Positions 900 through 24,219 of a stretch of DNA of 25,609 nt are shown one piece after another. Origin of the DNA: a virus (Duplodnaviria; Heunggongvirae; Uroviricota; Caudoviricetes); IMG/VR virus record IMGVR_UViG_3300045988_034843. One strand, written 5' to 3'. The notes under the pieces are model-generated. The model ran no database searches. It was not told the origin of the DNA and saw only the letters and a list, made by a program, of their open reading frames with translations. The position numbers and the translations under genes were made by a program. Position 1 is the stretch's first letter; each line of letters starts with the position of its first letter.

Positions 900-1004
900 G
901 TTAAATCTCCAGATAGTCGCAGCACCCGTTGCGCCGCATATCTGGTTATTCTATTACCTGAAAAACCATATATGGATAAAAAGACTATAAATACCAATAG
1001 ATAT

Positions 1005-1019
1005 TACCTTTCGGGTAAT
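1005..1019. promoter_or_regulatory. Dyad operator-like site TTACC-TTTCG-GGTAA (copy 1 of 6)
   Basis: Exact 5-bp inverted half-sites with 5-bp spacer, flanked A...T; 76 bp upstream of the ATG at 1095. Confidence 0.6.
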
Positions 1020-1055: not shown

Positions 1056-1075
1056 TACTGTATAAACATACAGTT
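1056..1075. promoter_or_regulatory. LexA (SOS) box TACTGTATAAACATACAGTT
   Basis: CTGT-N8-ACAG with AT-rich spacer, close match to the E. coli LexA consensus TACTGTATATATATACAGTA; contains TATAAA (-10-like); 20 bp upstream of the ATG at 1095. Confidence 0.7.
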
Positions 1076-1359: not shown

Positions 1360-1375
1360 GGCCGCAAGAGCGGCC
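1360..1375. terminator. Hairpin GGCCGC-AAGA-GCGGCC between convergent genes
   Basis: 6-bp GC stem with 4-nt loop directly after the stop at 1352 and overlapping the minus-gene stop at 1375; T-rich on the minus-strand side. Confidence 0.5.
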
Positions 1376-2103
1376 TATCGTTTCGCTTTGTGCTCGTCCC
1401 AGCACGTTTTGCACCATGCCATTAAGCCATCCGCATTTTGATTATTAGGGTAAAAGCTTGTTCGTTTTCTGCGGACATTACAAATTGGGCACCACTTCAT
1501 ATGGCGTGTATTCTTTGGGCCATCGAGACACCTTGCACACCACTTAGTCAATCCATCTGGATTTTTTGACGATTTCCTGAATTTTTCATATGGTAGGTTT
1601 ATTCTGCATCGCAAGCACTGCTTGCTACCACTTGAAACTCTGTTAGCTGATTCTTCTTTTGGCGGCGATACAGAAGGTATTCTTGCTGGCTCTGATACTG
1701 CCTGAGGTGCTTTTTTAGATGACTGAGACGATATGTCATCACCAGGGAATCTTCCATGATATGCCGGACGCGTTGACACTCCAGGTGGAAGCTCAGCTGT
1801 AAACGGCTTTGGCTGAATCAGTTGCCTCTCTTTTGCTAACTCCTGCTGTTTATAATATGTCTGGATTACCGCACTATCATAAGCAGGAGGTGCGGAAATA
1901 TTAGGCGCATTACCTCCAGTTTTTTGAAACTGAGTAGAGGTGTGTTCTATCACCTGTGTACGATTAATCGTTATCTCCCCATCTTCGGTCTTTATCGTTT
2001 TGTTATGATTAACGACCGTACGATCAGAGATCTTAGTCTTGTTCTGGTTGATAACGTAAATAATCACCGCAACCACACCAACAACTATCCAGAAAACTTC
2101 CAT
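1375..2103 (-). CDS. Membrane-anchored protein with tandem C-x2-C-x22-C-x2-C zinc-ribbon-like repeats (242 aa); function unknown
   Basis: Track ORF; N-terminal hydrophobic helix (VFWIVVGVVAVIIYVI); C-terminus has two repeats CLRC...NPDGLTKWCARC and CPIC...NADGLMAWCKTC; GAGGAAAA RBS upstream of ATG at 2103. Confidence 0.7.
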   Translation of the reverse strand: MEVFWIVVGVVAVIIYVINQNKTKISDRTVVNHNKTIKTEDGEITINRTQVIEHTSTQFQKTGGNAPNISAPPAYDSAVIQTYYKQQELAKERQLIQPKPFTAELPPGVSTRPAYHGRFPGDDISSQSSKKAPQAVSEPARIPSVSPPKEESANRVSSGSKQCLRCRINLPYEKFRKSSKNPDGLTKWCARCLDGPKNTRHMKWCPICNVRRKRTSFYPNNQNADGLMAWCKTCWDEHKAKR

Positions 2104-2231: not shown

Positions 2232-2321
2232 ATTTACATTGCACTCCTCTTGTGCCATAGTAATCGGGCACTGGCAAAATCCAGTGCCGGGATTGGTCTC
2301 CCGGATTACTAAGTGGCGCAT

Positions 2322-2344
2322 ACCACGCCAGACGTGGTTTTTTT
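2322..2344 (+). terminator. Rho-independent terminator-like hairpin in the leader upstream of the Ant-like gene
   Basis: ACCACG-CCAGA-CGTGGT stem-loop followed by TTTTTT(T); preceded by two further hairpins at 2267-2288 and 2287-2304. Confidence 0.5.
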
Positions 2345-2502
2345 ATGCGTATAGCACAGTCATGCCAGAATTATGGTGGGCTGAATGGGGGTCCGAAAGG
2401 ACGCCGGTACCACTTAGGCCGGTAAGACCAACTCCGTTCAGTTCACCACCATCTGATTGGTCTCAGCGGTGGTGATGTAATTCGCTAAGTGGAGACGCCA
2501 TC

Positions 2503-3159
2503 ATGAACGCTCAACTCATCCCCGTATTCAACGGCACTATATCTAACGAAACAGCCCTACTTTGTAATGCCCGCGATCTGCACGCTTTTTTAGGTGTTAA
2601 AAAGGTGTTTGCAGCATGGATTACAAATCGCATATCAGAATACGAATTCATTGAAAATCAAGACTATATTTTGCTTTCCAATTTGGGAAAGCAAACATCT
2701 GGTAGAGGCGGCCACAACCGCAAAGAGTACCACCTCACCCTTGATACAGCCAAAGAGCTGGCGATGGTCGAGCGTAACGAAAAAGGTCGCCAGGTGCGAC
2801 GCTACTTCATTGAATGCGAGAAACGTTTAAGACAACAAGAAACAAAAGTGGAGAAGGTCTTGTCAGGCTTCATGCCCGCCATTATGGAGGCGATCAAGCT
2901 GGAAGACAAAAAAGAATACAGCGCCCCACTGAAGCCCGGCTACCGCAGCCTGATTCACTCGCCGTCTGGTGTTCTCGGCCTGACTGAGAACTCACTGCTG
3001 ATGAATCTGCTGAACCAGTTACAGGAAGACGGGCACGATGTATCTGGCGCGGCGGCGGAGCTGACCACCATGTTCTGCTACATCGTTGGTGTGAGCAAAT
3101 GCCTGCGTGATATCCAGACCCACGCGGAGTACATCAACGACAAGGCAGGGTTCTTCTGA
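2503..3159 (+). CDS. Antirepressor-like protein, AntA-type N-terminal domain (218 aa)
   Basis: Track ORF; GGAGA RBS 7 nt upstream; N-terminus IPVFNG...[10 protein letters not shown]...F..W...RI.EYEF.EN.DY resembles the AntA/AntB antirepressor domain as I recall it; C-terminal third is paralogous to the 85-aa protein at 1095-1352. Confidence 0.7.
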
Positions 3160-3244
3160 CGAGCGGCGGCACATGGATGTGCCTACAATTATCAATAATT
3201 GTTTACACTCGTTGCAGTTAAAAGCATTATACTCATGTTTAAAA

Positions 3245-3259
3245 TTACCCGATTGGTAA
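3245..3259. promoter_or_regulatory. Dyad operator-like site TTACC-CGATT-GGTAA (copy 4)
   Basis: Centre 29 bp upstream of ATG 3281, downstream of a TTATACT -10-like element. Confidence 0.6.
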
Positions 3260-3280
3260 AGTCGATTGGTTGAGGTTCAT

Positions 3281-3607
3281 ATGAGCAGAAGATATGTCAA
3301 GGAGCTGGCTATAGAGTCTGGCACCCCTTTGGGTATCGTTCCTGGCTCCAACTATGCCAAGGCTTTAAACCGAGACTCTGTCGTCAAAGTTATATCAAGA
3401 GACATGAATATGGTCGGAGACGATCTCAGACGGTCAGAAAATCGTGTTTATGCTGAATATATAGTAAAGAACGGAAAAAAAATTGCAGCGCCTGCTGGCG
3501 GAAAATGGGCAATAGTGACAGGGAAAAACTCAAATGCAAGAGGAAAACCAGAAGCTAAAGGAATGTCCTTCGACAAATATGCAAAAATCTATTGGGCAAC
3601 CAAGTGA
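3281..3607 (+). CDS. Hypothetical protein (108 aa)
   Basis: ATG 3281 with GAGG 7 nt upstream (track ORF 3266-3607 trimmed to this ATG); AT-rich, lysine-rich; no motif I recognise. Confidence 0.55.
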   Translation: MSRRYVKELAIESGTPLGIVPGSNYAKALNRDSVVKVISRDMNMVGDDLRRSENRVYAEYIVKNGKKIAAPAGGKWAIVTGKNSNARGKPEAKGMSFDKYAKIYWATK

Positions 3608-4082
3608 TAACGAAGAAACTGAGTTCGAGGAAGTTGAGGAAGGGCTAAGTAACGAGATCATTCAACACCCAGATGCCTTCACAAGAGTTCTTGATCGCCC
3701 TGAAATTCAGGAGATAGTTGTCGCTCACCATGCGTTTCAGGGGCCGCTTCCTCCCCCCTATCTGCTTCGCGGGTATCAGGATATTTTACCTGATGCCCCC
3801 GAACGCATCTTCCAGTTGACGGAGAAGGAGTTTGCTCACCGCCAGAAAATGGAGGAAAAGGCACTTGACGGGGCTATTAATAGAGATAAACGTGGGCAGT
3901 GGTTTGGCCTGAGTGCAACTATTTTTACAGTAGCTTGTGCAACATTATTAGGTTTAACAGGTCATGAAGTTCTAGCTGGCACAGTGATCGGTACAGTTGT
4001 TGCAGTGGCTGGTATTTTCGTTCTTAGACAAAAACCAAGCATCAAGAAGAAATCTGAAGACAACAAACCTGAAGAAAAGTAA
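3534..4082 (+). CDS. Membrane protein with two C-terminal TM helices, possibly DUF2335-like (182 aa; alternative start 3579 gives 167 aa)
   Basis: Track ORF; overlaps the 3' end of the previous gene in another frame; conserved-looking stretch PLPPPYLLRGYQDILPDAPERIF...HRQ then hydrophobic segments FGLSATIFTVACATLLGL and VIGTVVAVAGIFVL; followed immediately by a terminator. Confidence 0.6.
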   Translation: MQEENQKLKECPSTNMQKSIGQPSDNEETEFEEVEEGLSNEIIQHPDAFTRVLDRPEIQEIVVAHHAFQGPLPPPYLLRGYQDILPDAPERIFQLTEKEFAHRQKMEEKALDGAINRDKRGQWFGLSATIFTVACATLLGLTGHEVLAGTVIGTVVAVAGIFVLRQKPSIKKKSEDNKPEEK

Positions 4083-4103
4083 GCCCGCGCTGCGGGCTTT
4101 TTT
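4082..4103 (+). terminator. Rho-independent terminator AGCCCGC-GCT-GCGGGCT + T6
   Basis: 7-bp GC-rich stem, 3-nt loop, T-run 4098-4103, directly after the stop at 4080-4082. Confidence 0.75.
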
Positions 4104-4175
4104 GTGGACGAAACAAAAGTCAGTGCTACACTCATTGACGCCACATTGAGGTGGCTTATAGATGGAAATTTCACA

Positions 4176-4337
4176 ATGAAAAAAGCATTTGCTGCACTGT
4201 TCGTTTTGTTGTCTCTGGTAGCTTCAACTCAGGCCTTTGCCGGTCGTTGTCAGCACGACAGCGACACTGCTGCTGACGGCTCCCGCTGCGGTGGGCGTTC
4301 TGCGGATTCCCGCCCGGGTGGCGGTGGCATTCGTTAA
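4176..4337 (+). CDS. Small predicted secreted peptide (53 aa) with N-terminal signal sequence
   Basis: Internal ATG of track ORF 4104-4337; MKKAFAALFVLLSLVASTQAFA looks like a Sec signal peptide with AFA cleavage motif; mature part Cys/Gly/Asp-rich; weak RBS. Confidence 0.4.
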   Translation: MKKAFAALFVLLSLVASTQAFAGRCQHDSDTAADGSRCGGRSADSRPGGGGIR

Positions 4338-4342
4338 AAACA

Positions 4343-4358
4343 AGGCCGCGAAAGCGGC
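4343..4358. terminator. Hairpin GGCCGC-GAAA-GCGGCC shared by convergent genes
   Basis: 6-bp GC stem with GAAA loop; the minus-strand reading is followed by TTGTTTTT, so it most plausibly terminates the minus-strand lipoprotein gene. Confidence 0.55.
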
Positions 4359-4360
4359 CT

Positions 4361-4372
4361 GTGACATGTCAC
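4361..4372. repeat. 12-bp perfect palindrome GTGACATGTCAC (copy 1 of 3)
   Basis: Exact palindrome abutting the hairpin at 4343-4358; overlaps the stop codon of the lipoprotein gene. Confidence 0.6.
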
Positions 4373-4749
4373 GCAACGCAATTATTACCGCGCCATGTAA
4401 CATTTTTAATAATCTTATCAGCACCAAACTCAACGTAAACAGAGCAACTGAAATGGAGTGTATAACCGCCATCAGTTGTTGCGTATGTGTTTGAATATAT
4501 AGTATTACCAATTAGATTAGACGTAGTATTATACGTTGTGGTTTGTGGTACGTTATAACTACCAGAGCTTGAGTAAACATACACTCTGTTTCCATCTGGA
4601 GATGTAAGCTCTCCCTGAGGATACCCCCACTGCTGAACCATTGCGTCTATACTCTGCCCGCGCCACGTAAGCATATTTCTTTCAAACTGTGCAGCTGACT
4701 GGCATCCAACGAGAAGCATAAATCCAAAAATCAAAAATACTTTTCTCAT
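4369..4749 (-). CDS. Putative lipoprotein (126 aa)
   Basis: Internal ATG of track ORF 4369-4785 with AGGGG RBS; MRKVFLIFGFMLLVGCQSA has a lipobox (LVGC); mature part Thr/Ser/Tyr/Asn-rich. Confidence 0.7.
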   Translation of the reverse strand: MRKVFLIFGFMLLVGCQSAAQFERNMLTWRGQSIDAMVQQWGYPQGELTSPDGNRVYVYSSSGSYNVPQTTTYNTTSNLIGNTIYSNTYATTDGGYTLHFSCSVYVEFGADKIIKNVTWRGNNCVA

Positions 4750-4834
4750 AATTACCCCTATCATGGAAAAACAGCACCAATCCACAAATTAACTAGTTAT
4801 TTTATTATTCTTCCGAACAATACAATTCCGAATA

Positions 4835-4968: not shown

Positions 4969-7443
4969 TTATTGCGGAGTGACATCCTGTGGTCGCCACC
5001 AGTATGTCTGGTTAAACTCTTTCTTCGAACGTTGCTCCATTTTACGCAAATAGCCTGGTGAAAAATACTCCTGCATCTGGTTAAAGATCATGTGATCGAG
5101 AGCCGCCTTCAAGTACCAGAGATTCGCACCAGGCATCAAACCTTTCCCCAGCTTCACCAGATCACCACCAGTCTGCTCACTCTTCCCTTCCACAGCATTT
5201 AACGGTATGCCCTGAGCAATCTTCACTACGTCATCAACCAGACCAGCTACCGGGCCAAGCATCGACGCCAGCGCGCCGCTTCCGTACCTAGTGTGATCTG
5301 ACAATAAAAAGTCACCGTAAAGGCCAAGACCACCACCTTTCAGTAGAGCACCAAGCCAGAATTTTGCGGCATCTTCTCCTGTCATCTCTCGAGGATTACG
5401 ACCAGACGCAAGGTCGTTAAGTTGCTGCGACAAAGCGCCAAGAATGGTCGTACTGGCAATAAACGTCGCAATATATGCCGCACGCCCACCAGCAGACGGC
5501 ATACCCATAGCGCGTGACCAGTGACGCATAACAACCGAGATAGGGAACGATTTAAACAGGAAAACACTTCTCGTTAATTCACCTTTCCATGTTCCACGCT
5601 GAATACCAGAACCGGTTATCAGTTGCTCACGTGCTCCCGGTGTAATAACAGCCATATCAACTTCTTCAGTTACGGCACCGAGCAGTTTACGCATTGCCTC
5701 AAATTTCACGCGTTCAGGCTCACCAAGATGTTTAACTGCTGAATCAGGGATACGCATAATGCTTTCCGGTGTCAGCATCGTATTATTACCGTTCCCCCAG
5801 TCCTCCTGTTTCGCCAGCTTCCATACGCTCCAGTCTGTGTCAGTAATCCCTTTGCTTTTCAGGATACGAAAATCAGAGTCATCGAGGCTACGAAGGTCTG
5901 GTGTCCGTGACACTACTTCTCCCAGGCTTCCCATCATGGTTACGCCATAGGCGCGCTTGTGCGCATCTGACCATGCTGTAAGCCCACTGGCACGCATTAC
6001 CGCCGTTGCCGCCCAACGAGACACTGACGGCCCCATATTATCCATCGCCCAGCGGTTAACGCTGCCAAGTAGAGATTCCATCGCCAGACCAGCGCGGCGC
6101 GCCCGCGCAAGTTCTGTACGGTTCGTTGGGTCCATAGCTTCAAGCTGGTTGCGGAATAACTGGTTCATTGGAAGGTTGGTAACCTTCGCAGACAGATACA
6201 TGGTTCCAAGATCAGAGAACGATGACAGCAACGCGGATCCGAGTCTGCTGGCAACCAGCCAGTTGCGGATATTGTCAGACCATCGCGCGATGTGCGGATT
6301 CGCTACAGGCTGTGTCTTTCCGGAAATAAAGTTGTACAGATTCTCTGTGTTGTTCGCCAGCCGCTCGACTTTACCGGTTTTACTCGGGTTAGCTGTTGCC
6401 GTTTCTGCCTTCACCTGATCAAGAAGAGAGCGGAAAACATGATCGGGGTTTGGGCCATATGTTTCCACCAGTGCAATATCTTTACTGATACCTTCCAGGT
6501 GACCGACCATGATTTCCCATAGAGAGCGATCGCCATAAAGTTGCTGATATTGCAGATAGGAATCTGCATCTTTGAAATGTATCTGTCGTGATGCATTACC
6601 ACGGTTAGCACGTGCGCCGGAAATTCGCATTCCGGTATCAGTAAGCTTATTCAGCCCACCAGTAGCGATCGTGTTATAAGCCTCTCCAAGAAATGAAGAC
6701 AACTCGGCATCGTTCATCAGTTGTCCATCGGCTCGGATATAATATTTGCGATCCAGCTTACCTATAACATCGCTAACCCACTTATCCTTTGATACTGCCC
6801 CAACCTTTTCCATAGAATGATGTTGAGGGATCCCCCAGTTTTCGAGATAGCCAATGTCCCCACCAGCATCATTAAACCGGCGGCGCAGCAGCTCTGTAAC
6901 TTCTCTCCACGCCTTAGCACCGTTTCTTGCTTTAGCATTGCCAGTATTTTGCCCCCGCATTTCATATACCAGGTCACGTACGCCCGCTTCATCTTCAAAC
7001 AGACCAAAAAAGCGAGGATCAACTGCTTCGAATGCCTCCTGCAATTGACTCAATGCATAATCACGGGTGGCTTTTGTTCTGGATTCAACAGAGAGGAAAT
7101 TAGATTTACCGTCTGCATTAAAAGCTATAGTACGGTTAAGAGCGCCAAGTTTCCCATCAGCCCCTTGATAGCTATTGATAAATTTATCCAATCTCTGACG
7201 CGCGGCTATAGTGAGAGCCACACGACGTTTCTTTAATGCCGCTTCTCGCTGTAATTCTTCAGATGCCAATTGTGCTGCTCGATATAGCCGCTCTGATTCG
7301 GAAAGTTGTCGCCACGACATAGGGTCATCACGAGCAATGGAGCGCATATTTCGATAAATGCGGTCTTCAATGTTCTGTATTTCTCGCGCCGTTAACATGC
7401 GCTGCGCCGCCTGCTGAACCGCTTGTATACATTCCTGTCTCAT
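4969..7443 (-). CDS. Large internal virion / DNA-ejection protein (824 aa), gp16-like by position
   Basis: Track ORF; last gene of the structural operon before the accessory island; size and position consistent with a podovirus ejection protein. Confidence 0.6.
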   Translation of the reverse strand: MRQECIQAVQQAAQRMLTAREIQNIEDRIYRNMRSIARDDPMSWRQLSESERLYRAAQLASEELQREAALKKRRVALTIAARQRLDKFINSYQGADGKLGALNRTIAFNADGKSNFLSVESRTKATRDYALSQLQEAFEAVDPRFFGLFEDEAGVRDLVYEMRGQNTGNAKARNGAKAWREVTELLRRRFNDAGGDIGYLENWGIPQHHSMEKVGAVSKDKWVSDVIGKLDRKYYIRADGQLMNDAELSSFLGEAYNTIATGGLNKLTDTGMRISGARANRGNASRQIHFKDADSYLQYQQLYGDRSLWEIMVGHLEGISKDIALVETYGPNPDHVFRSLLDQVKAETATANPSKTGKVERLANNTENLYNFISGKTQPVANPHIARWSDNIRNWLVASRLGSALLSSFSDLGTMYLSAKVTNLPMNQLFRNQLEAMDPTNRTELARARRAGLAMESLLGSVNRWAMDNMGPSVSRWAATAVMRASGLTAWSDAHKRAYGVTMMGSLGEVVSRTPDLRSLDDSDFRILKSKGITDTDWSVWKLAKQEDWGNGNNTMLTPESIMRIPDSAVKHLGEPERVKFEAMRKLLGAVTEEVDMAVITPGAREQLITGSGIQRGTWKGELTRSVFLFKSFPISVVMRHWSRAMGMPSAGGRAAYIATFIASTTILGALSQQLNDLASGRNPREMTGEDAAKFWLGALLKGGGLGLYGDFLLSDHTRYGSGALASMLGPVAGLVDDVVKIAQGIPLNAVEGKSEQTGGDLVKLGKGLMPGANLWYLKAALDHMIFNQMQEYFSPGYLRKMEQRSKKEFNQTYWWRPQDVTPQ

Positions 7444-21036: not shown

Positions 21037-21051
21037 ATTACCTTTCAGGTA
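21037..21051. promoter_or_regulatory. Dyad operator-like site TTACC-TTTCA-GGTAA (copy 5)
   Basis: Same half-sites and spacing; preceded by TTGACA (21016-21021) 17 bp before TACCTT; lies between the 20947 minus-strand start and the plus-strand tRNA. Confidence 0.6.
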
Positions 21052-21374
21052 ACCAAAGAGTTCATTCCGGTTACTAACCTGACTGGCTTGTCGTTAAATT
21101 GAACAGGTGGAGTGAGCTTTTATTTTGAGCAGTACGGCGTATGGCACATGCGCCGATAGCGGTCTGGATGCGTTTAAGGGGCACCCTCCCTGGCTGTGGC
21201 AAACGAACCAGGTAGCCGGAATGTGCAAGTCGAGCGGTTTTATTCCGCGCACGGGGATTCACCATCCCGGCGATTCGGTGTGACGCCTCGGAAGAGACGA
21301 GGGTACAACGATGAGAGCATTTATGGAGCCGCGACAAAGTGTGGCGCCTTAACAGGCTAAGTGCTCTCAGCGTT

Positions 21375-21451
21375 GTGGCATTAGCTCAGTTGGACAGAGC
21401 AACCGCCTTCTAAGCGGTTGGTCGCAGGTTCGAATCCTGCATGCCACGCCA
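21375..21451 (+). tRNA. tRNA-Arg (anticodon UCU), 77 nt with encoded CCA
   Basis: Hand-folded cloverleaf: acceptor GTGGCAT/ATGCCAC, D-arm GCTC-AGTTGGACA-GAGC, anticodon stem ACCGC/GCGGT with loop CTTCTAA, T-arm GCAGG-TTCGAAT-CCTGC, discriminator G, CCA; close to but not identical with E. coli argU as I recall it. Confidence 0.85.
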
Positions 21452-21494
21452 GAATCACGCCTAAGGACCGTGATGCCAGAAGTTCCAGGGGCTT

Positions 21495-21536
21495 GGCGGT
21501 GATGGTTTCCCTTGAAGGACTATCACCGCCCTTTTT
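21495..21536 (+). terminator. Rho-independent terminator after the tRNA
   Basis: GGCGGTGAT...ATCACCGCC 9-bp stem followed by CTTTTT. Confidence 0.65.
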
Positions 21537-21614
21537 ACAGCAGGGCGCCATTGCGATGGCTTCATGCTGTAAACCAGTACAGCCACGGAAGGCATAACTC
21601 ATTGCTTCCAGTTC

Positions 21615-23591: not shown

Positions 23592-24187
23592 TGATTGCCA
23601 TCCTGACGTTCTTTCAGTCTCTTCCTGGCTGCCGCTATGCGATCAGCAATTGTCACATTCACATTAACATCCAGGCGTTCTTTGAATGCGTTGACGTCGA
23701 CGTGCTTACCAATCAGTTCGAGGTTCTTCACCTTGTCAGGCCATTTAATTTTTTTGAGGATGCCAACCAGCTCTTTCTCGTCTCCACGGCCTTCGAACAT
23801 GTCGGCCAGTTCGAAACCTGTCAGGTACTGCCGCCAGACCTTAGGCCATTCCGAGACCGGCTTGATGCTCATATCGTCGTTGAGAATGTCAATCACGTCC
23901 ATCTGGTCGATCTCCACCAGGCGCATGAGAACGTAATCAGCACTGACGCGCATTCGTTTGTTGCGCTCCTCCATCAACTCGGCAATCCGTTTCTGAATGC
24001 GTTCATCGCGCATCATGACACTGGCTTTAACTGCCGCTGTATTTGGGGAGAATCCTGCATTAATCGCAGCCTGAGTCTGGTTTTCAGGCGTTTTGATGTA
24101 TGACTGGCAATAAGCCTCCTGCATTGCTGTTAGTGGCTTAAATTGCGTTGATTTGCGTTTATAGGTTTTAGGTTCAGCAGGCATCAT
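23588..24187 (-). CDS. Terminase small subunit (199 aa from ATGATG at 24187)
   Basis: Track ORF 23588-24265 begins at a TTG; the in-frame ATGATG at 24187 is preferred; helix-turn-helix-like TAMQEAYCQSYIKTPENQTQAAINAGFSP; directly upstream of and overlapping the large subunit. Confidence 0.55.
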   Translation of the reverse strand: MMPAEPKTYKRKSTQFKPLTAMQEAYCQSYIKTPENQTQAAINAGFSPNTAAVKASVMMRDERIQKRIAELMEERNKRMRVSADYVLMRLVEIDQMDVIDILNDDMSIKPVSEWPKVWRQYLTGFELADMFEGRGDEKELVGILKKIKWPDKVKNLELIGKHVDVNAFKERLDVNVNVTIADRIAAARKRLKERQDGNQ

Positions 24188-24204
24188 AACCACCGTGGTA
24201 ATAG

Positions 24205-24219
24205 TTACCGTTGTGGTAA
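24205..24219. promoter_or_regulatory. Dyad operator-like site TTACC-GTTGT-GGTAA (copy 6), embedded in GGTAA-TAG-TTACC-GTTGT-GGTAA-TAG-TACC
   Basis: Centre 25 bp upstream of the terminase small-subunit ATG; extra half-sites on both sides form a tandem GTGGTAATAG(T)TACC direct repeat. Confidence 0.55.

Follow-up and report, generated by a model that had tools for sequence, protein, structure and literature searches.

What is the pair of overlapping genes that lies between the antirepressor gene and the virion genes of an epsilon15-like prophage, and when would the phage express it? We addressed this question in a 25,609-nucleotide stretch of a tailed-phage genome (Caudoviricetes; IMG/VR record IMGVR_UViG_3300045988_034843), called the window below, in which gene A, encoding a soluble protein of 108 residues, overlaps gene B, encoding a membrane protein of the DUF2335 family (Table 1). 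The region has 98-99 % matches in EC.W1-9, vB_EcoP_ZX5 and phiv142-3, which belong to the genus Uetakevirus (the epsilon15/phiV10 group) and comprise Escherichia coli prophages as well as isolated phages. The 911-bp unit formed by A and B is contained in 81 of 5426 complete E. coli genomes, in the chromosome in every case, and RefSeq labels its products "hypothetical protein" and "DUF2335 domain-containing protein". Its slot is an accessory stretch flanked by ant on one side and by virion and ejection genes of the opposite strand on the other. The isolated E. coli phage ZX5 carries exactly the same cassette with an identical operator, and the sister phages phiV10 and epsilon15 carry no A-B unit, which makes the pair optional accessory cargo, as a first-pass annotation of the sequence had supposed in assigning it to a prophage accessory slot. 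The A-B unit is a mobile accessory ("moron") operon of an epsilon15/phiV10-like (Uetakevirus) E. coli prophage and, to judge from its sequence relationships, one local representative of a two-gene module that is conserved and widespread, seemingly undescribed so far, and found in phages and in bacteria of several phyla.

The simplest objection would be that gene A is spurious, its overlap with gene B an annotation artefact and the dyad upstream of it a chance palindrome, with the DUF2335 gene alone functional. A does lack a Pfam family, has few database relatives and gives a low-confidence structural model, yet comparison with its relatives runs the other way. When the unit was aligned with relatives that share B at 78-92 % identity and A at just 50-70 %, residues 1-84 of A showed a ratio of nonsynonymous to synonymous substitution rates (dN/dS) of 0.18-0.36 against four diverged relatives, i.e. 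purifying selection, and the constraint within the overlap also sat in A's frame. The same relatives conserve the ATG of A and its ribosome-binding GAGG, the ATG of B, the Shine-Dalgarno-like stretch before B and the terminator stem. Homologous partners occupy the position of A in 61 of 61 DUF2335 loci (described below), and the dyad is strongly over-represented in the window. Gene A is a genuine gene; the dyad counts, the hhalign comparison, the dN/dS values and the partner-profile results refute the objection, which we give hardly any chance of being right. The 108-residue product, which had been read from the sequence as soluble, has no hydrophobic segment; it is basic (isoelectric point (pI) 10.0, net charge +10.5).

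A belongs to a family of small proteins encoded next to DUF2335 genes. Its close relatives form 19 clusters, assigned to Enterobacterales wherever a host is named, and each lies directly upstream of a DUF2335 gene. An exhaustive phmmer search with A returned three distant small homologues, and matches to giant repeat proteins were judged to be repeat-summed artefacts. We surveyed 61 diverse DUF2335 loci, drawn from viral contigs and two metagenome-assembled genomes, and nearly all have a same-strand open reading frame (ORF) of 58-110 residues that ends inside or just 5' of the DUF2335 gene and carries the motif F/L-x-x-G...(D/E)-x-x-A-L-x-x-D-W-x-x-V-G-x-D; a second form of the family motif is G-x-x-L...P...Y...D-[WM]-x-x-[VIL]-G-x-D. 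When the A family was compared by hhalign with 26 such partners, taken from distant DUF2335 loci, the match was significant (probability 95.6 %, E = 1.2e-8, 47 columns, A residues 13-59). A hidden Markov model (HMM) of the A family placed the upstream ORFs at the top of the 555 ORFs in distant loci, and a profile of the partners matched immediately upstream of the DUF2335 gene at E < 1e-3 in 54 of the 61 loci, had its best match there in the other 7, and gave one significant match elsewhere among 6451 ORFs. The co-occurrence of both genes across genomes, which the first-pass annotation had proposed as a check, is found in all close relatives of the pair, where A and B are adjacent, and in every one of the 61 diverse loci, where the partner lies upstream. 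At the locus L112, a second partner-like ORF (2854-3087; E = 1e-8 with the partner profile) stands immediately downstream of the DUF2335 gene, which might indicate that the cassette is duplicated in tandem or rearranged. No Pfam model covers the partner family, searches of solved structures with the A, partner and DUF2335 profiles found nothing credible, and the AlphaFold2 model of A (predicted local distance difference test score (pLDDT) 53) is too poor to show a fold.

Gene B has coordinates identical to those of RefSeq WP_001154803.1. An HMM search bears out the DUF2335 assignment that had been suggested for it: PF10097 matches residues 73-122 over its whole length (positions 1-50 of 50) at 57.2 bits (cut-off 25; E = 1.6e-15), which makes B a clear member of a Pfam family described as "predicted membrane protein" and without an assigned function. 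The core GPLPPP...ILPDAPERIF...HRQKME precedes a two-helix hairpin, and the two transmembrane helices that had been proposed to follow the PLPPPYLL...ILPDAPERIF segment are evident from hydropathy at residues ~123-141 and ~148-166 (19-residue windows with a mean Kyte-Doolittle value of at least 1.6), after which comes a short basic tail. Residues 1-120 form an acidic N-terminal part (pI 4.75, net charge -11) that is likely cytoplasmic and helical, with the hairpin likely N-in/C-in because B has no signal peptide and basic residues flank the hairpin. G70, P71, L72, P73, P75, Y81, H102 and R120 are invariant across 22 B homologues, and residues 69-182 are strongly conserved, whereas codons 1-24 are near neutral in B's frame. 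The AlphaFold2 model of B (pLDDT 60) is too poor to use. We found neither functional literature on DUF2335 nor any account of a partner gene that always precedes it; where two type VI secretion papers name a "DUF2335 phospholipase", DUF2235 was very likely meant, and the name has no bearing here.

B had been reported to start inside A, with an overlap of up to 74 nt in another frame, and the overlap persists under either of the two candidate B starts. No Uetakevirus-borne relative has lost the ATG at 3534 or the Shine-Dalgarno-like stretch upstream of it. A second possible start, the ATG at 3579, would leave a 29-nt overlap and is replaced by TAC in three lineages, in which B must therefore start at the first ATG and the overlap is 77 nt. 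Within the overlap, dN/dS is 0.29-0.49 in the A frame and 0.6-3.7 in the B frame; because the constraint sits in A's frame, the overlap is set by A, whose conserved C-terminal FDKYAKLYWATK dictates it, and the first ~24 residues of B are a passenger leader. Uetakevirus-borne relatives all have an overlap of 74-77 nt, against 32 nt for the cassettes of a Rahnella prophage, L043 and L044, and long out-of-frame overlaps, of tens of nucleotides, are the rule in the partner-DUF2335 module. Sequestration of the B start by structure in the messenger RNA (mRNA) was also considered, and folding gave it no support (z = +0.68).

When such a pair would be expressed probably depends on the dyad at 3245-3259, which the first-pass annotation had placed between a -10-like element and the ribosome-binding site and had taken as the mark of an operator-controlled unit. 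The inner dyad, TTACCCGATTGGTAA, does lie there, between the -10-like TAAAAT and the GAGG of gene A. Extended to the 17-mer ATTACCCGATTGGTAAA (half-sites ATTACC and GGTAAA around the spacer CGATT), it agrees at 11 of 12 specified bases with the epsilon15 repressor sites, ATTACC-N5-GGTAAT, and the identity of the operator rests on the RefSeq record of epsilon15, in which these same 17-mers are annotated as "protein_bind: repressor". With at most one mismatch, TTACC-N5-GGTAA occurs 7 times in the window against 0.34 expected by chance, a count reached in 0 of 100 shuffles; exact copies lie at 1004, 2124, 2217, 3245, 21038 and 24205, and the one-mismatch copy at 24187. Exact copies number 10 in phiv142-3, 10 in ZX5, 8 in phiV10 and 11 in epsilon15; among the copies in these genomes, three lie in the repressor/cro intergenic region, some are paired at early promoters and others precede terS, ant, oac and int. 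Since phiV10 keeps its full set, including the three sites in the repressor/cro intergenic region, despite having no A-B unit, the Uetakevirus dyads are independent of A. The ZX5 repressor is reported to be identical to those of phiV10 and phiv142-3 and to have cut holin transcription by 99.97 % when overexpressed (PMC9782041). Every Uetakevirus-borne cassette has invariant half-sites around a variable 5-nt spacer.

We infer that 3244-3260 is an operator for the phage repressor, Rep, lying over the -10/+1 region of the A-B promoter. Because the dyad would be one of the dispersed Uetakevirus repressor sites placed over a promoter, the operon is probably not expressed in the lysogen but becomes active once the phage infects or is induced. 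The earlier claim of operator control thus stands, with the correction that the site is not a private autoregulatory one but a copy of a dispersed Uetakevirus repressor operator. Its company is that of epsilon15-like Rep operators (epsilon15/SPC32H), with dyad copies at terS, the ant operon, early promoters and the rep/cro region, and these dispersed dyads, here predicted sites, are analogous to the C1 operators scattered over the genome of phage P1. The difference from both regulons is that the dyad described here also accompanies the cassette in phages outside Uetakevirus, a behaviour for which we know of no counterpart among Rep or C1 operators.

Two overlapping sigma-70-like candidates make up the promoter region, and the -10 hexamer of the downstream one (P-down) closes on the first T of TTACC. 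The same layout recurs in L012 (TTCAAA-16-TGAAAT), in the otherwise unrelated promoter of L023 (TTGACG-16-TAAGAT), in the Rahnella locus L040 (TTGCAA-16-TATTAT) and in L044 (TTGATA-17-TACATT), and the -10 hexamer and dyad are arranged likewise at an early promoter of phiv142-3. We rejected an RNA hairpin formed by the dyad, since its stems show no co-variation although the loop is variable, folding of 3160-3290 was not unusual (z = -1.25), and the left arm is probably untranscribed because the -10 hexamer overlaps it. Between the ant stop and the promoter lie a hairpin and a perfect 18-bp palindrome. Both stem sides of the hairpin are altered in relatives (e.g. GGCGC...GCGCC in L012 and L003), and it may form the 3' terminus of the ant transcript; the palindrome, ACAATTATCAATAATTGT, has one copy in the window and is kept in L012 and L017, degenerate in L022 and L003, and absent from L023. 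At the other end, the predicted terminator closing the unit is confirmed as a strong hairpin and T-run 3' of B: a scan found an 8-bp stem with 6 G-C pairs, a 3-nt loop and the tail TTTTTTGT, which meets intrinsic rho-independent criteria, and the stem is kept in all relatives, the loop alone varying.

The cassette occupies different sites in different phages. In Uetakeviruses it is flanked by ant and the virion genes; in a Rahnella lambdoid prophage it separates the Q antiterminator gene from the lysis genes; a Mu-like prophage carries it within its baseplate cluster; and phage contigs of low guanine-plus-cytosine (GC) content have it between terS/terL and a late-regulator-like gene. In some Pseudomonas-like loci it stands beside an integrase or repressor gene, and in a Geobacteraceae genome beside a gene whose N-terminus resembles DUF262 (GmrSD-type) by eye only. 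Such varied placement is, by analogy, moron-like behaviour. In three of the four phage contexts the cassette is in or at the head of a late operon on the same strand, which fits expression during lytic growth. The 53-residue gene that follows the A-B terminator (Table 1) also follows the pair in the Rahnella prophage (L040 5316-5477, ~72 % identity) and may travel with it; because the Rahnella block shares this gene, a larger block appears to have moved between phage types. In phiv142-3 (L039 6100-6700), the slot downstream of ant contains just two short annotated ORFs, Orf9 and Orf10; this genome covers only part of the window's ant-to-lipoprotein region and has the Rep dyad (at 6153) and the 53-residue gene (Orf11), and the A-B cassette may be disrupted there.

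The dyad moves with the cassette. In non-Uetakevirus phages it abuts a -10 hexamer 28-38 nt upstream of diverged A-like genes, with the half-sites alone conserved and the flanks scrambled. The Rahnella lambdoid prophage has one dyad in 13.8 kb, and its cI is of the S24 type with no dyad in the cI/cro region; in the Mu-like prophage group the cassette dyad is the sole exact site in 14-19 kb, and contig L044 also has the dyad. The travelling dyad may possibly be used by the cassette's own product, by a host factor or by the Rep of another phage, and it therefore keeps alive a reading of the pair as a self-regulated toxin-antitoxin-like or abortive-infection system, in which A (or an A-B complex) would bind the dyad and restrain a membrane-damaging B. 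Such a system would act in the lysogen or carrier cell once A disappears or an infecting phage titrates it, and in Uetakeviruses the cassette's operator would coincide with, or have been tuned to, the Rep site. The passage of the dyad into phages without Rep-type immunity (Rahnella, the Mu-like group and L044), conserved there in its half-sites, argues for this reading, and the order of soluble then membrane gene, the overlap and the basic A recall type II layouts. A, however, has no DNA-binding domain detectable in Pfam and NCBIfam searches, no similarity to Rep or Cro and a model too poor to show its fold, B matches no known toxin family, and all dyads are kept in phiV10 and epsilon15 without A-B. 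Some low-GC cassettes have palindromes of their own 33-57 nt upstream of the partner gene, though palindromes in AT-rich loci may arise by chance, and the neighbouring slot of the same prophage holds a YafO toxin-antitoxin module in other strains. On balance we consider self-regulation by the pair rather unlikely.

We tentatively favour, with a little less than even confidence, a model in which A and B form a Rep-gated mobile operon that acts at the membrane as a conflict module during lytic growth. Rep bound to the operator would keep A-B off in the stable lysogen, and the pair would be switched on together with the other Rep-controlled units, at infection or once an antirepressor inactivates Rep. 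Ribosomes finishing A would initiate B within A, such that B would be made only alongside A. A would then bind the acidic cytoplasmic part of B (charge +10.5 versus -11) and control B's action at the inner membrane. The module would serve phage-phage or phage-host conflict in lytic development, for example by blocking the entry of a second phage or by disturbing the membrane, and its role would be neither a housekeeping nor a virion function. The abortive-infection, exclusion or toxin-antitoxin-like function suggested by the first-pass annotation is, by analogy with such pairs, a plausible guess.

Several observations weigh against this model. Binding of Rep at 3244-3260 is deduced from sequence, and Rep control cannot by itself account for a dyad that accompanies diverged cassettes in phages without Rep-type immunity. 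No significant RNA structure that would enforce coupling was found around the B start in the folding described above. Charge complementarity between partners and DUF2335 N-termini did not hold up across 41 pairs (rho = -0.25, p = 0.12), a comparison confounded by the overlapping DNA, and the poor AlphaFold models (pLDDT 53 for A, 60 for B) leave A-B binding and the action of B as guesses. No homology bears on function, there being no PADLOC match, no Pfam or NCBIfam match beyond the DUF, no solved relative and no functional DUF2335 literature: A has no match in Pfam, NCBIfam or PADLOC, B has just one chance-level match in PADLOC-DB v2 (E = 0.039, to a methyltransferase model), and comparison of both proteins with toxin, antitoxin, holin and DNA-binding families in Pfam, NCBIfam and PADLOC gave no match beyond DUF2335. 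Repression in the lysogen also fits poorly with a classic prophage exclusion or toxin-antitoxin role, classic prophage-borne exclusion genes being expressed in lysogens.

Placement with late genes raises the further question of whether the pair is a late lytic accessory outside conflict, either a lysis-timing regulator (antiholin- or holin-like) or a membrane anchor for packaging or assembly. The Rahnella cassette lies between the Q antiterminator and holin/lysozyme genes, the low-GC contigs have the cassette directly before terS/terL, and the Mu-like prophage has it inside the baseplate cluster; that the site differs among phage types is, however, expected of cargo and not of a core late function. 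In the window itself the lysis cassette is at another site and the A-B operon is convergent with the virion operon, and phiV10 and epsilon15 are viable without the pair, which is thus dispensable. Class II holins have two helices in an N-in/C-in topology, which the likely topology of B matches, but B is far larger than these proteins and matches no holin family. We judge a role of this kind improbable. A-B also differs from holin/antiholin pairs in its surroundings: the lysis cassettes of these phages stand apart from it, and adjacency to an endolysin gene is seen in the Rahnella prophage alone.

A-B bears comparison with several known systems. Like lambda RexA/RexB, it is an accessory two-gene prophage module that encodes a soluble protein first and an inner-membrane protein second. 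The rexAB genes are transcribed with cI in the lysogen and exclude other phages, whereas A-B, at a distance from the immunity region, has its own promoter under a predicted repressor operator. The two modules share no sequence similarity, PADLOC gave no match, and B consists of two helices and a large cytoplasmic domain. Type II toxin-antitoxin systems share with A-B a small first gene overlapping the second, a promoter palindrome and cassette mobility among prophages, and differ in that the A-B overlap is 74 nt, not a few, with no recognisable DNA-binding fold in A and no known toxin fold in B. HK97 gp15 and T4 Imm and Sp are small membrane proteins that block entry of superinfecting phage DNA. 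A-B resembles such morons in being a promoter-to-terminator insert among core genes that encodes an inner-membrane protein and, if Rep-controlled, would be expressed similarly to the T4 early exclusion genes; it has no homology to them and consists of two proteins, the membrane protein being paired with a conserved cytoplasmic one.

Table 1. Features of the A-B unit and of other parts of the window (positions in the 25,609-nucleotide stretch)
Feature	Position	Strand	Details
Gene A	3281..3607	+	108 residues, soluble, basic; ATG 3281; phrog_10654; small-partner family upstream of DUF2335 genes
Gene B	3534..4082	+	182-residue DUF2335 predicted inner-membrane protein; PF10097; phrog_3996 "membrane protein"; alternative start 3579
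Out-of-frame A/B overlap	3534..3607	+	74 nt; last 24 A codons and stop; first 24 B codons
Shine-Dalgarno of gene A	3272..3275	+	GAGG, 5 nt 5' of ATG 3281; conserved in all relatives
Shine-Dalgarno-like stretch of gene B	3520..3524	+	AGGGA, inside gene A; read directly; relatives have AAGGAAGG there
Candidate Rep operator	3244..3260	.	ATTACCCGATTGGTAAA; covers -10/+1 of promoter
Promoter region	3202..3245	+	two overlapping sigma-70-like candidates; consensus scan
P-up candidate	3202-3207, 3225-3230	+	TTTACA-17-CATTAT; consensus scan
P-down candidate	3218-3223, 3240-3245	+	TTAAAA-16-TAAAAT; consensus scan
Hairpin	3168..3183	+	GGCACAT-GG-ATGTGCC; just past ant stop; no T-run; read directly
Perfect 18-bp palindrome	3185..3202	.	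ACAATTATCAATAATTGT; abuts -35 element of upstream promoter candidate
Intrinsic terminator	4081..4105	+	AAGCCCGC-GCT-GCGGGCTT then TTTTGT; hairpin 4081-4099; overlaps B stop codon (4080-4082)
ant, antirepressor gene	2503-3159		AntA domain; stop codon 3157-3159
53-residue gene	4176-4337		signal peptide and 31-residue mature peptide with two cysteines; phrog_14503; after A-B terminator
Terminator-like hairpin	4343-4360	-	on strand of lipoprotein gene
Likely lipoprotein gene	4369-4785	-	apparent lipobox LLVGC; phrog_3716; converges on accessory cluster
Perfect 17-bp Rep operator	1003-1019		ATTACCTTTCGGGTAAT; upstream of 85-residue gene (ATG 1095 to 1352)
Perfect LexA box	1058-1073		CTGTATAAACATACAG; upstream of 85-residue gene (ATG 1095 to 1352)
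242-residue protein gene	1375-2103	-	N-terminal membrane helix, C-terminal zinc-ribbon/HNH-like repeats; phrog_6762; weak endonuclease VII and Lar-like matches
isrK Hfq-binding small RNA	2268-2344		terminator 2322-2338; Rfam above gathering score
C4 antisense RNA	2369-2453		Rfam above gathering score
tRNA-Arg(tct)	21375-21451		in long non-coding gap (21038-21582)
Two Rep-type dyads 18 bp apart	24187-24219		directly upstream of likely terS start on - strand

Other parts of the window carry the same regulatory signatures. The isrK and C4 RNAs lie between a Rep operator (2217-2231) and the start of ant (2503), a c4-ant layout like that of phage P1 immI in a podovirus prophage, and the C4 antisense RNA is the feature that likens the neighbouring ant operon to immI. 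Upstream of the 85-residue gene (1095-1352) stand a Rep operator and a LexA box; its product resembles by eye the C-terminal half of the 218-residue Ant and is probably an SOS-controlled small antirepressor, which we take to be of the SPC32H type. The 242-residue gene has a Rep operator at 2124, 20 nt before its start, and in other strains (L001 3909-4848) its slot holds a YafO toxin gene and an upstream hypothetical gene. The non-coding gap with the tRNA gene has a Rep-type dyad at 21038 and a LexA-box-like CTGT-N8-ACAG at 21567. Because two dyads stand directly upstream of the likely terS start, the packaging/virion operon would also seem to be directly repressor-controlled.

What is new here is the conserved partner family, its universal pairing and overlap with DUF2335 genes, and the operator that travels with the cassette. 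DUF2335, a sizeable orphan family of phage and bacterial membrane proteins, becomes part of a defined two-component module through a conserved, unannotated, overlapping partner; should the pair act in exclusion or abortive infection, it would represent a new family, one that the PADLOC v2.0.0 (2023) catalogue lacks. The dispersed repressor regulon of epsilon15-like phages gains one more transcription unit, A-B, and why the same operator travels with the cassette into unrelated phages is a concrete, testable question. A more far-reaching proposal, which we regard as a long shot, is that the partner-DUF2335 pair is a new widespread two-component phage membrane module, possibly a new class of conflict system, that in Enterobacterales keeps a Rep-type operator even in phages without Rep, either because its own product binds the Uetakevirus operator or because the cassette responds to a repressor supplied by a Uetakevirus that shares the cell or is entering it. 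If the former is true, the product could disturb the immunity switch of Uetakeviruses; if the latter is true, the cassette would be engaged in cross-phage regulatory eavesdropping.

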